Shown piece after piece: positions 37,801 through 40,800 of a stretch of DNA of 64,000 nucleotides; within the stretch, counting starts at the first letter, position 1, and every line of letters starts with the position of its first letter. The position numbers were made by a program. The DNA is from Escherichia coli (lineage in GTDB: Bacteria; Pseudomonadota; Gammaproteobacteria; Enterobacterales; Enterobacteriaceae), in the NCBI RefSeq assembly GCF_003019035.1, contig NZ_CP027447.1, one strand, 5' to 3'.

Positions 37801-40800
37801 TTTTATTTGGTGGTCATTGGTACGTCCCTGACATTTAGTCTGTACCTGAAAGGAGCACAATTAATTGGCGGTCCAAAAGCCAGCATTTTGAGCTGTGCAG
37901 AACCATTAAGTAGCGCGCTGCTCTCTTTGCTGTTGCTGGGGATCACATTCACATTACCGGACTGGCTGGGAACGCTTCTGATTCTGTCATCAGTGATTTT
38001 GATTTCAATGGATTCCCGTCGCCGCGCCAGAAAAATAAATCGTCCGGCGCGGGATGAGTGAGAATTACCAGCCAGGCACCGCGCCACCGTTAAAGATGGT
38101 TTCTGCCGCTTTAGCGACTTCGGATGATTGATAAGATTGCAGAAATTCCTTCACGTTTTCTGCATTCTTATTATCTTCCCGTGCTACCAGAATGTTCACA
38201 TACGGCGAATTTTTATCTTCAATAAATACGCTGTCGTGCACCGGAGAAAGTCCGGTCTGCTGAATGTAAGTGGTGCTGATAATCGCCACATCAACTTTGG
38301 GATCATCCAGTACGCGCGGGAGCTGCGCCCCCTCGAGTTCCATAATCTGCAAATGACGAGGATTATCGGTTATATCCAGCGCGGTAGGTAATAACCCTTT
38401 TCCCTCTTTCAGAATAATTAGCTTCTCTTTTTGCAACAGTAAAAGCGCACGACCAAGGTTGGTCGGGTCGTTGGGGATCGCCACTGTCGCGCCTTCTTTT
38501 ATTTGCGCCACGGTTTTGATTTTTTTGGAATAACCCGCCATAGGGAAGACAAACGTATTTCCCACCGCTACCAGTTTATAACCATGCGCCTGATTATCTT
38601 GTTCAAGAAAGGGCCGATGCTGGAAGACATTCGCATCAAGCTCGCCATGATTTGTCGCATCGTTCGGTAGCAACGAACCGCTAAATCCTACCAGTTCAAC
38701 ATCGAGGCCATATTTCTCTTTTGCCACCTTTTTAGCGACTTCCGCGACATCTTGTTCTGCGCCATTTATAACGCCAACTTTAATGTGTTTTGCATCGCTG
38801 CTACTCTGGTCGCAACCTGCCAGCAGAATTCCTGCCAGCAATAATGCGGCCCCCGCCCGTAGATGATGTGTTGTCAGTTTCATTTTTTATCCTTTTTTTA
38901 ATCATTAACTGACTATAATGGCAAGATCACTACGATTTAAAAAACGAAAAGCTATCGAATAGAAGAAAAAGGTATAAAAAACTGGCACTTCTTACTGACC
39001 ACGCAAACACCTTTCGTACAGCATGATGAGAGCGGTAAAAGCAAACTACACTTATGCTTCATTCGATGCACATTTGCAGAAGGTTGCCGCTATGAAGCCA
39101 ACGATGCTACTCATGATTACCGTATTCCTGACTTTTCCAGCCATTTCTCAGGCCGAGTCGCCATTCAGCTCGCTACAGTCGGCAAAAGAGAAAACCACGG
39201 TATTGCAAGATTTACGTAAAATTTGCACGCCACAGGCGTCATTATCAGACGAAGCGTGGGAAAAATTAATGTTGTCTGATGAGAGTAACAAACAACATAT
39301 CCGCGAAGCTATTGTGGCGATGGAGCGTAATAATCAGAATAACTACTGGGAAGCGCTGGGTAAGGTGGAATGCCCGGATATGTGAATTTCGCACACCTCC
39401 GCGCTCAGGCCAGCAGCCGCTGACTTAAGCTCGCACATCAGTAAATCACCTGCTTTTTCAAATTCCAATCAAAATTGAACCCGTTCATCAGGATTGTGGA
39501 TAAATTTCCCTCTACATTATTTTCATTTCATCACATAGAAAATCTTATCTCATTGAAACAATACTTGTTTTTAATGCAGAAAACGAAGCCCAACGGATGG
39601 GCATAAAAATGAGCGAATTTTGATATCACCACCCTCTAAAAAATGGTGAAGTCTGAACAAAGAATGTTCGAAAGGAGAGAGTAGAGATGGAAAGCACAAA
39701 TCTGGATTTAGAAGAAAATAAAGAAATTGCCAGTAAGTTCGAACGTGCATTAGGTATGGGAGCAACGCTTGCAGAGCTGCATGGCATAACCCCGGATACC
39801 CTTGAAGGCGTTTATGCTTACGCTTATAACTTTTATGAAAAAGGAAGACTTGACGAAGCTGAACTCTTTTTTAAATTTCTCTGTATTTATGATTTCCAAA
39901 ATTATAACTATCTAAAAGGATATGCCGCCGTCTGTCAATTGAAGAAAGATTATCAAAAGGCATTCGACATGTATCATATCTGTTTAATGCTATCTCCCGA
40001 TAACGATTTCTCTTTGGTTTATTATATGGGTCAATGCCAGATGGGCTTAAAAAACATTAAAATGGCCACTGAGTTATTTAATACTGTCGTAACCTATAGT
40101 CAAAATGAAAAAATTAAAGAGATGGCTACTGCTTATCTTGAACTTTTGACAGCCAATACCGAAGAGGAAGTTCAAACAGAGTGAGTCGGCAAAATGAACA
40201 TAAATGGAAAAAACGCTTCTTTTACGTCTGAAGAGTTAGCCAGGAAATATCATGAGGAAGCCACGGTTGATTTAAAAAATAACCATGGCGATAAAATAAA
40301 TGAGAAGAATAACAATAAACACATTACTTACTTTCCCGTTGATGCCATTTTAGATGGGAATAAACATCTGCCATGAGTTAAATAAAAAAGAATTAATTAC
40401 ACCCGATGATAGCTTAAAAAGGAGGTGAATTATGTCGGCACCGATTACGGGACAAACGATCACGTTTGAACAAATCAGTGAAACATTGCGTACACAGTAT
40501 AGCGATGCGGAAAAAAGACTGCAGGACAGCAGCAAAACGCAAGTTGATCCCATGCGGCTTAATAAAAACCCGAAATCCCTTGATAACGATATTCGCGCTC
40601 GTCTTGAAAACAAACCGATGCTTGCTCCGCCTGAAATACAGGTTTCAGATTCAGACAACGCCACTACAGCAAAGACGAATGATGCCCGCCTGACAATGAT
40701 TTTGGGTAATTTAACAGGCATTGCCGATCAGGATATTACAAAACGATTGCATAATAACCTTGACAGCACCCTGCTTCGACACGAAATGGCACATAATAAG

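Follow-up and report, generated by a model that had tools for sequence, protein, structure and literature searches.

The 60-codon open reading frame (ORF60) that lies between the chaperone gene eicA and the translocator gene eipB in the 64-kb stretch of Escherichia coli DNA analysed here (the window) is best explained, with moderate confidence on our part, as a dispensable and probably decaying accessory small gene, not a core part of the secretion system. It behaves as such by two marks: its first two-thirds, about 39–45 codons depending on the test, drift neutrally, and the frame is truncated in about 31% of the complete genomes that carry the locus. Frameshifts between intact flanking genes, together with the neutral evolution of most codons, argue against a required protein, and the decay is in line with the mutational attrition known for ETT2/eip.

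The eicA gene ends in a TGA at 40182-40184, and the ATG of ORF60 begins at the 10th nucleotide after this stop. The coordinates, the 247-nt gap and the 60-aa sequence given in the original prediction agreed with the ORF list and the sequence throughout (Table 1). The region had also been described as unannotated, which was not borne out: PGAP labels ORF60 as "hypothetical protein" in AR_0013 (WP_001024521.1), a strain identical to the window over the eicA-eipB region but for one position, and flags copies of ORF60 in other genomes as "frameshifted". ORF60 is not named in the published six-gene description of the eip locus, and it has no paralogue within the window. By Pfam, EicA matches TPR_3 (E=2e-17), EipB is T3SSipB, EipD belongs to the tip-complex family and EilA is Trans_reg_C.

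Table 1. Features of the eicA-eipB junction in the window.
Feature	Coordinates	Strand	Description and basis
eicA	39687..40184	+	class II (SycD/LcrH/SicA-type) T3SS chaperone, 165 aa; ORF list, Pfam TPR_3, PGAP
eicA-eipB spacer	40185..40431	+	247 nt, AT-rich, 33% GC
ORF60	40194..40376	+	60 aa, ATG start, hydrophilic, Asn/Lys-rich; PGAP "hypothetical protein"
5′ two-thirds of ORF60	40194..40310	+	hypervariable, approximately neutral rate; pi, synonymous/nonsynonymous counts
A6 homopolymer	40274..40279	+	site of the A5 and A7 frameshift alleles; alignment, sequence context
66-nt island	40311..40376	+	constrained; last 21 ORF60 codons (KHITYFPVDAILDGNKHLP) and stop
Post-ORF spacer	40377..40413	+	alignment of E. 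coli lineages and L004/L034
eipB Shine-Dalgarno (SD) and start	40420..40434	+	SD AGGAGGTG at 40420-40427, ATG at 40432-40434; sequence, duplex energy
eipB	40432..42213	+	SctE/SipB/IpaB-type major translocator, 593 aa; ORF list, Pfam, PGAP

The length of the junction is unusual, as had been claimed from the near-zero gap in SPI-1 and Shigella: sicA-sipB are separated by 2 nt and ipgC-ipaB by 5 nt, against 247 nt for eicA-eipB, which therefore falls outside the 2-5 nt tight junction of the Inv-Mxi-Spa type, found also in Providencia (2 nt) and on E. marmotae pEM148 (5 nt). The eip locus shares with SPI-1 and Shigella the order chaperone (class II TPR), major translocator, minor translocator and tip protein, SicA and IpgC share 42-47% identity with EicA, and EipB is in the SipB Pfam family, but the SPI-1 and Shigella junctions have no intervening ORF where the eip junction has one of 60 codons. 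Long gaps are found in the E. coli "eip2" lineage (255 nt), E. albertii (263 nt), the metagenomic lineage L089 (218 nt), L090 (172 nt) and Y. enterocolitica (121 nt); among Inv-Mxi-Spa-type translocator operons, a long gap of 121-263 nt is the usual form in the eip/Ysa-like branch and is read as ancestral there.

ORF60 is a genuine small ORF with coding-sequence composition, restricted to Escherichia. Dinucleotide shuffles of the spacer gave an ORF of at least 60 aa in 1.0-1.6% of cases (P=0.010-0.016), the frame-specific codon usage of ORF60 beat 99.7% of the chance ORFs from such shuffles (P=0.003), with a frame-0 advantage of 0.608 that corresponds to the 75th percentile of real eip-gene windows, and the G excess at codon position 1 was likewise significant against chance ORFs (P=0.013). 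A chance ORF was rejected on these length and codon-usage statistics. The protein search returned only nine clusters, every named one of them E. coli, with no homologue found outside Escherichia and zero matches in Pfam, NCBIfam and PDB. Of the flanking proteins, EicA had as its sole match among genome contigs a contig of contaminating E. coli DNA within a Collinsella MAG, and the search for EipB homologues returned near-identical E. coli variants only.

The coding signature and the improbable length favour an alternative that we consider unlikely, namely that ORF60 encodes a functional small T3SS-associated protein, for example a secreted substrate or an EicA-binding regulator of chaperone occupancy resembling the ExsE-ExsC pair. 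Its activity would reside in the conserved C-terminus (YFPVDAILDGNKHLP), and the N-terminus would be a sequence-tolerant secretion signal. The position of the ORF60 start, adjoining the chaperone stop, suits this alternative, and its SD, with a duplex energy of -4.8 kcal/mol the weakest in the operon, speaks against it.

The reading frame is broken in many strains. The original prediction had offered frame-disrupting indels between intact flanking genes as evidence against itself, and such indels were found: among the 733 complete genomes carrying the locus, 146 have an A5 allele and 82 an A7 allele (together 228, or 31%), the latter counted with a 70-nt probe, a 33-nt probe having matched nothing, probably by low-complexity masking. 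These are two independent alleles, both in the A6 tract of ORF60. In a set of 66 spacer-covering sequences, which comprises 56 metagenomic contigs, nine RefSeq loci chosen non-randomly and the window, 25 carry a frameshifted ORF60, and nearly all of the frameshifted loci that were checked have both flanking genes, eicA and eipB, intact. The frameshifted versions end at codon 29-34, about 130-150 nt upstream of eipB and before the conserved C-terminus, and such a truncation in 31% of genomes argues against the small-protein alternative. Since about 12% of the sampled loci have a disrupted eipB, the ORF60 frameshifts may partly reflect attrition of the whole locus instead of a dispensability specific to ORF60.

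Mutational attrition of ETT2/eip in E. coli was described by Ren et al. (2004), as summarised in PMC11068852 and PMC7058095, and it resembles what is seen in ORF60 in that lineage-specific frameshifts kill single genes with intact neighbours. ORF60 differs from the genes named there: it goes unnamed in that literature, its frameshifts are confined to one homopolymer, and even its intact copies are, for most of their length, already free of detectable protein constraint.

The truncations bear also on a distinctly unlikely alternative in which the peptide is irrelevant and the translation of ORF60 matters in cis: by re-initiating after eicA, ribosomes would occupy the AT-rich gap of 247 nt and so shield the eicA-eipBCD transcript from Rho-dependent termination or cleavage. 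The Rho sites that it calls for are putative, and the frameshifts would halt translation some 130-150 nt short of eipB, yet they are common in loci with an intact eipB.

Substitutions tell the same of most codons. The 183 nt of ORF60 contain 50 distinct mutations, which are spread evenly over the three codon positions (16/17/17), compared with 10/7/31 in eicA and 101/67/211 in eipB. They divide into 14 synonymous and 36 nonsynonymous changes (omega-like 0.78), and in the first 45 codons (40194-40328) into 10 and 34 (omega-like 0.96). The two flanking genes, used as controls, behaved as expected, with 34 synonymous and 13 nonsynonymous changes in eicA (omega-like 0.12, strong purifying selection) and 192 and 183 in eipB (omega-like 0.34). 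Over ORF60 as a whole there was neither the excess of synonymous changes nor the concentration at third positions that mark purifying selection, and pN/pS was about 0.5 in frame 0 and likewise in frame +1. Nucleotide diversity reaches its maximum for the eicA-eipB region over 40194-40310 (pi 0.065), where the divergence of the L004/L034 lineage amounts to 14.5% of sites (4 synonymous and 13 nonsynonymous changes). That none of the 50 mutations creates a stop codon counts against decay, though this outcome has a neutral expectation of 0.2. An omega of about 1 across the N-terminal 45 codons counts against a functional small protein, and an amino-acid sequence evolving at an approximately neutral rate is what a role of translation in cis would allow. 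The last 15 codons, with 4 synonymous changes and 1 nonsynonymous change (P=0.018), give a hint of constraint that looks like coding constraint on the C-terminus, a point in favour of the small-protein alternative and against the reading that we prefer.

The constrained parts of the spacer are only the last 66 nt of ORF60 and the SD and start of eipB. Diversity in the island (40311-40376) is low (pi = 0.019), and 3 of the 66 island sites differ in L004/L034. In the spacer that follows (40377-40413), which is conserved in the main E. coli lineages and 19% diverged in L004/L034, 7 of 37 sites differ (Fisher P about 0.02), a contrast that again looks like coding constraint on the C-terminus. The eipB SD is the strongest of the operon (duplex energy -12.9 kcal/mol), and this SD and the start codon do not vary in any of the loci, among them L004, whose selection did not involve that sequence. 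A purely protective role of translation leaves the constrained island unexplained.

The island and the invariant SD region upstream of eipB speak for an alternative that we regard as very unlikely, in which the spacer is purely non-coding, whether as a 5′ leader, as a regulatory RNA or as an internal promoter of eipBCD, for instance one dependent on EilA, and ORF60 is incidental. According to the literature eipB is regulated by EilA, which agrees with this, as does the long gap kept in related loci, one of which has no ORF. The length and codon usage of ORF60 are unlikely for an incidental sequence, however, and the changes within the island are mostly synonymous, an observation that fits a constrained C-terminus of a small protein and not a non-coding element. 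Scans for such elements gave little: no Rfam 15 covariance model matched at E<=1 on either strand of 39400-40800, the fold of the eipB leader was not significant (z = -1.6), although its MFE structure places a predicted 6-bp hairpin at 40351-40370, within the island, and the spacer has no plus-strand sigma-70 promoter-like or terminator-like site, a scan that activator-dependent promoters would escape. A cis motif shared by three eip-type spacers was also rejected, none being present beyond chance, and a structured RNA or a constitutive promoter is unsupported by the Rfam search, the fold z-score and the promoter and terminator scan. The suggestion that the spacer is a leader controlling eipB is thus supported only in part, by the constrained 66-nt island and the eipB SD, and gains no support from the Rfam search, the fold or the plus-strand scan for promoters and terminators.

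Other lineages with a long gap also have ORFs at this place. The E. albertii eip gap contains a 70-aa ORF (ORF70), annotated as "hypothetical protein" (e.g., BAT45660.1), and in L089 a 71-aa ORF (ORF71) occupies the position of ORF60; each of the two lengths is improbable by chance (P about 0.005). ORF70 resembles ORF60 in lying at the same site (setC-yicL-yicS), directly after the chaperone stop, and in being of similar size. It differs in its good SD, where that of ORF60 is weak, and in its start codon, a GTG overlapping the stop of the chaperone gene, and its codon usage is less gene-like than that of ORF60. All ORF70 variants seen have the full 70 aa, and the E. albertii population, with no synonymous and 3 nonsynonymous changes, is too uniform for selection to be measured. 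Homology of ORF60 and ORF70 was rejected, with no BLASTP alignment and permutation P values of 0.26-0.66, and no significant similarity was found among ORF60, ORF70 and ORF71. The open ORFs of 70 and 71 aa in two other lineages hint at something that keeps the ORF open, and this counts against decay.

The E. albertii counterpart, with its SD and overlapping start, and the 71-aa ORF of L089 add to the case for a small protein, from which the missing similarity among the three ORFs and the "eip2" lineage, with no ORF at this position, detract. Translation in cis would account for ORFs of 60-71 codons being kept open in three lineages without sequence similarity, and for a start codon at or just past the chaperone stop in all lineages examined; it is contradicted by three related loci, which have just 14-24-aa ORFs directly after the chaperone stop, and by "eip2", where the longest ORF anywhere in the gap is 30 aa. 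A last possibility, to which we give a very small chance, is that the eip/Ysa-like branch has a positionally conserved, very fast-evolving small gene downstream of the class II chaperone gene, whose products would bind the chaperone groove, be secreted and tune the free chaperone available for the translocators or for transcription co-activation. ORF60 would then represent this class in E. coli, acting through its conserved C-terminus and lost in about one third of strains.

For both protein readings, binding to the chaperone is the point at issue. In Pseudomonas aeruginosa the small protein ExsE, which is secreted by the T3SS, binds ExsC, a chaperone that is class I-like and not of the TPR class II type. 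ORF60 has no sequence similarity to ExsE; by analogy it is likewise small and encoded beside a T3SS chaperone gene, and a similar logic coupling secretion to regulation would be conceivable. Substrates of class II chaperones carry near their N-terminus a P/VxLxxP hexapeptide that binds the TPR groove (PMC3443056), and the translated EipB, compared with that description, has such a P-x-L-x-x-P motif (PMLAPP, residues 62-67). The motif is absent from ORF60 and its variants, in which VDLKNN comes closest. Modelled alone by AF2, ORF60 gave a mean pLDDT of 58 and no confident fold, and in an EicA-linker-ORF60 fusion the ORF60 part had a pLDDT of 36-56 and did not dock onto EicA. The absence of the motif and of docking in the AF2 model weighs against a small chaperone-binding protein, and in favour of one is the E. 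albertii ORF70, whose residues 47-52 (PELIKP) are identical to the SycD-binding hexapeptide of YopD. The Ser/Asn/Ile-rich N-terminus of ORF60 is, as a matter of composition, compatible with T3SS secretion and not diagnostic of it. The idea that ORF60 arose, by splitting or duplication, from the N-terminus of EipB or of some other translocator was rejected: the N-terminus of EipB is already full-length and includes the chaperone-binding motif. Comparison of ORF60, ORF70 and ORF71 with the N-termini of 17 translocators and 127 SctE representatives, by phmmer and Smith-Waterman permutation, gave nothing significant.

In the reading that we prefer, that of a dispensable and decaying accessory gene, an intact ORF60 is probably translated weakly, its own SD being poor, by ribosomes that have finished eicA at its stop codon 9 nt upstream, and would yield a 60-aa peptide that is hydrophilic, disordered and of no required function. 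The eipB gene would be translated independently from its own very strong SD, and the island, with the eipB SD and start, may serve eipB expression as an mRNA or DNA element or as a translation-initiation region; alternatively, the island may preserve a residual functional C-terminus of the peptide. Among the roles first proposed for the ORF, which were a small secreted substrate, a regulatory peptide or a non-coding leader of eipB, the leader is thus upheld in part, and the frameshifts and the neutral codons argue against a required protein.

If this main reading is true, little changes in the picture of the locus: the eip translocator module would be eicA-eipBCD, and ORF60 a dispensable hypothetical gene that is undergoing attrition like the remainder of ETT2. 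The A5 and A7 alleles can serve as simple markers of lineage and, being natural ORF60 knockouts, for tests of function. The long, variable junction of the eip/Ysa-like branch, unlike that of SPI-1 and Shigella, suggests that the expression of eipB and that of eicA may be under separate control. In a search for a new small protein that binds the chaperone, the E. albertii ORF with its PELIKP hexapeptide would, judged by this motif, be the more promising lead.

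The window holds the E. coli eip island, adjacent to selC (type III secretion system ETT2/eip), in which a reading frame of 60 codons (ORF60) lies between eicA, the gene of a class II chaperone, and eipB, the gene of the SctE/SipB/IpaB-type major translocator. The 247-nt gap and the position and sequence of ORF60 matched the original prediction exactly; its description as unannotated did not hold, since PGAP lists ORF60 as 'hypothetical protein' WP_001024521.1 in strain AR_0013 (one difference from the window across eicA-eipB), and likewise in most other genomes. The eip locus has been described as six genes, ORF60 not being named among them (PMC11068852, PMC7058095). 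A 123-aa antisense ORF overlapping the eipB start and a weak minus-strand promoter-like site were also seen, and are probably spurious, given the AT-rich DNA.

Features of the eip region in the window and in the comparison loci (L-numbers)
Feature	Coordinates	Remarks
tRNA-Sec	35113-35207	
setC, yicL, nlpA, yicS		backbone genes after tRNA-Sec, before eicA
eicA	39687-40184	
eicA-eipB spacer		247 nt, 33% GC
ORF60	40194-40376	ATG start, 60 codons, inside the spacer
A6 tract	40274-40279	within ORF60
Constrained island	40311-40376	66 nt
Post-ORF spacer	40377-40413	
Promoter-like site	40374-40347	minus strand
Antisense ORF	40350-40721	minus strand, 123 aa
eipB	40432-42213	
Variable stretch of eipB	~40800-40890	
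eipC	42226-43377	
eipD	43421-44770	
eilA	44973-46670	
ORF70, E. albertii	L076 4519-4731	GCA_027566955.1; also L077-L079, L083-L088
Chaperone-SctE region, E. albertii	L076 4001-6561	compared with window 39687-42213
ORF71, metagenomic	L089 3482-3697	Logan ERR14042392
'eip2'	L080 and L081, 403-12480	GCA_009799345.1, GCA_910664965.1; also L073/L082
IS1 replacement, MZ1211	L010 2289-3001	

When the spacer was shuffled with dinucleotides preserved, 1.0-1.6% of trials yielded a plus-strand ORF 60 aa or longer. A codon model trained on five eip genes favoured the actual frame of ORF60 by 0.608 log units per codon; this value lies at the 75th percentile among length-matched windows from real eip genes and was reached by only 0.3% of the shuffle-derived chance ORFs of at least 50 codons. 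G occurred 18/4/9 times at the three codon positions, with position 1 enriched (P=0.013). Because length, codon-usage frame signal and G at position 1 exceed chance, ORF60 looks coding, now or recently.

Of 5426 complete E. coli genomes, 733 carry the spacer. Nine RefSeq and 57 metagenomic loci were compared, the latter retrieved through a 26-mer at the eipB RBS and start, clear of ORF60.

Distinct mutations in ORF60 and its flanking genes
Region	Mutations	Codon positions 1/2/3	Synonymous/non-synonymous	Omega-like ratio
ORF60 (183 nt)	50	16/17/17	14/36	0.78
ORF60, first 45 codons	44	14/16/14	10/34	0.96
eicA	48	10/7/31	34/13	0.12
eipB	379	101/67/211	192/183	0.34

Neutrality would give ORF60 0.23 synonymous to 0.74 non-synonymous changes, and its pairwise pN/pS of ~0.5 in frame 0 was the same in the +1 control frame. 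Nucleotide diversity peaked in its 5' two-thirds (pi 0.046-0.061), a stretch of eipB being as variable and the rest of the region lower. As a protein, ORF60 is thus largely not preserved in E. coli, with the caveat that no stop-creating substitution occurred among the 50 mutations, an outcome with a neutral probability of 0.2. Within the species, sequences of the eicA-eipB region form two groups, one sharing ~90% and the other 96-99% identity with the window (eipB compared in L005, L018, L021-L023, L028, L030, L031, L040, L048, L051-L053, L058 and L059), which may point to recombination or old allelic lineages.

The A6 tract, intact in the window, is replaced by A5 in one haplotype and by A7 in another, both flagged 'frameshifted' by PGAP in genomes where eicA and eipB have intact protein accessions. 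With allele-specific probes, A5 was counted in 146 and A7 in 82 of the complete genomes, together 228 of 733 (31%). Among 66 spacer-spanning sequences (56 metagenomic, nine non-randomly chosen RefSeq loci and the window), 25 had a frameshifted ORF60, with eicA and eipB intact in nearly all. The truncated products stop at codon 29 (A7) or 34 (A5), ahead of the conserved C-terminus. The reading frame is therefore not conserved across strains, and its frameshifts lie beside intact flanking genes, the pattern that the original prediction had named as its own refutation. Since eipB is itself disrupted in ~12% of sampled loci, attrition affects the whole island. Separately, E. coli MZ1211 carries IS1 in place of eicA and of the initial ~150 nt of ORF60, with eipB, eipC and eipD intact; the match of locus L020 breaks off at the same query position, and genome AST85 (H30) has lost all of eicA beyond its first 154 nt, which adjoin iatC.

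The constrained parts of the spacer are the eipB Shine-Dalgarno sequence (SD) and start, together with an island comprising the last 21 codons of ORF60 (KHITYFPVDAILDGNKHLP) and its stop. In the most divergent lineage (L004/L034, ~93% identical overall), 14.5% of sites differed in the 5' part of ORF60 (4 synonymous, 13 non-synonymous), 4.5% in the island (3/66; 2 and 1) and 19% in the post-ORF spacer (7/37); island versus post-ORF spacer gave a Fisher P of ~0.02 (0.016 when the spacer is entered as 8/37, the count being 7/37). Over all sequences, the last 15 codons had 4 synonymous and 1 non-synonymous changes (P=0.018). These small counts could reflect a C-terminus still under some coding constraint or an element acting at the nucleotide level; the frameshift lineages are not old enough to reveal decay of the island after loss of translation. 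Island and SD region would most likely serve eipB expression or keep a residual functional C-terminus. That the spacer is purely a non-coding leader or promoter, the ORF being incidental, is very unlikely in our view: a nucleotide-level element would suit it and the coding signal of ORF60 would not, Rfam had no match for the spacer, a scan of its plus strand for sigma-70 consensus hexamers and intrinsic terminators found no promoter-like or terminator-like sites, and the predicted leader fold was not significant (z = -1.6). We also judge it quite improbable that translation of the ORF acts in cis, the peptide being irrelevant. The SD of ORF60 is the weakest of the operon (-4.8 kcal/mol; other genes -6.3 to -12.9) and that of eipB the strongest (-12.9 kcal/mol); intact ORF60 would probably be weakly translated by ribosomes leaving eicA, and eipB, judging from its own very strong SD, would be independent of coupling.

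It is unlikely that ORF60 encodes a functional small protein that binds the chaperone or is secreted, as the original prediction had partly suggested; the conserved C-terminus is among the points that would favour this. ORF60 had no match in Pfam, NCBIfam or PDB, and only nine protein clusters were found, all named ones from E. coli. AlphaFold gave a mean pLDDT of 58 with one low-confidence helix. When ORF60 was joined to EicA through a flexible linker (22-sequence chaperone alignment), EicA exceeded pLDDT 90 and the ORF60 part reached 36-56, so no docking on EicA is predicted. ORF60 lacks P/VxLxxP, the hexapeptide by which IpaB, PopD and YopD bind their chaperones (PMC3443056); EipB has one, PMLAPP.

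The short junctions claimed for SPI-1 and Shigella were borne out: the gap is 2 nt in SPI-1 and 5 nt in Shigella pCP301, in contrast to 247 nt here; Providencia alcalifaciens likewise has 2 nt and E. marmotae pEM148 has 5 nt. No close full-length EipB relative outside E. coli was found among 1.84 billion cluster representatives (best ~28% identical), and related loci were reached via distant EipB matches and chaperone homologues. Their gaps measure 255 nt in E. coli 'eip2' (L073, L080, L081; no ORF above 30 aa after the chaperone stop), 263 nt in E. albertii eip (ORF70, 70 aa), 218 nt in a metagenomic T3SS locus (L089; ORF71, 71 aa, overlapping the chaperone's end), 172 nt in L090 and 121 nt in Y. 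enterocolitica Ysa (L092), each with a 24-aa ORF, and 34 nt in L074, where no ORF follows the chaperone stop. Long gaps are thus typical of the eip/Ysa-like branch. In three lineages the gap is occupied by a 60-71-aa ORF (chance P=0.016, 0.006 and 0.005). No significant similarity linked ORF60, ORF70 and ORF71 with each other or with the N-termini of translocators, and the three eip-type spacers shared no motif beyond chance. 'eip2', present in some E. coli, is a second, divergent eip-like locus of identical gene order (chaperone 55% identical to EicA, SctE 28% to EipB), adjoining a 1350-aa invasin/intimin-like gene and also encoding a 452-454-aa protein, a tip protein and a 563-aa EilA-like regulator. 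In L089, ORF71 fills the gap before SctE, and spaOPQRS-like genes accompany the chaperone and SctE.

The E. albertii eip lies at setC-yicL-yicS, the same insertion site as in E. coli. The chaperone there shares 71% identity with EicA, the SctE only 26% with EipB, which suggests that the translocator genes were replaced as a cassette or have diverged extremely. ORF70, 'hypothetical' in PGAP, begins at a GTG that overlaps the stop of the chaperone gene, is preceded by a good SD (-8.8 kcal/mol) and is full length in 12/12 variants; its codon usage is not gene-like, and the population data are too uniform for a selection test. Its 47-PELIKP-52 is identical to the hexapeptide with which YopD binds SycD, a class II chaperone. 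ORF70 is the best candidate for a putative class of fast-evolving small proteins occupying the chaperone groove, an idea we consider highly doubtful. The E. albertii chaperone gene itself varies in frame by 12 or 18 nt among strains (L083-L088 versus L076), apparently within a YAYAYAY repeat.

With moderate confidence, we read ORF60 as a genuine small gene by origin, restricted to its lineage and dispensable to present E. coli. Its first two-thirds would be in neutral drift, the slippery A-tract would have inactivated it in about one third of strains while sparing eicA and eipB, and it lacks a recognisable fold, motif or strong translation signal. ORF60 as a RefSeq hypothetical protein and gene-by-gene attrition in ETT2/eip are already known. 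What is new is evidence that ORF60 is gene-like yet unconstrained, how often and by what mechanism it is inactivated, and the expanded chaperone-translocator junction, often with an unrelated small ORF, as a feature of the eip/Ysa-like branch.
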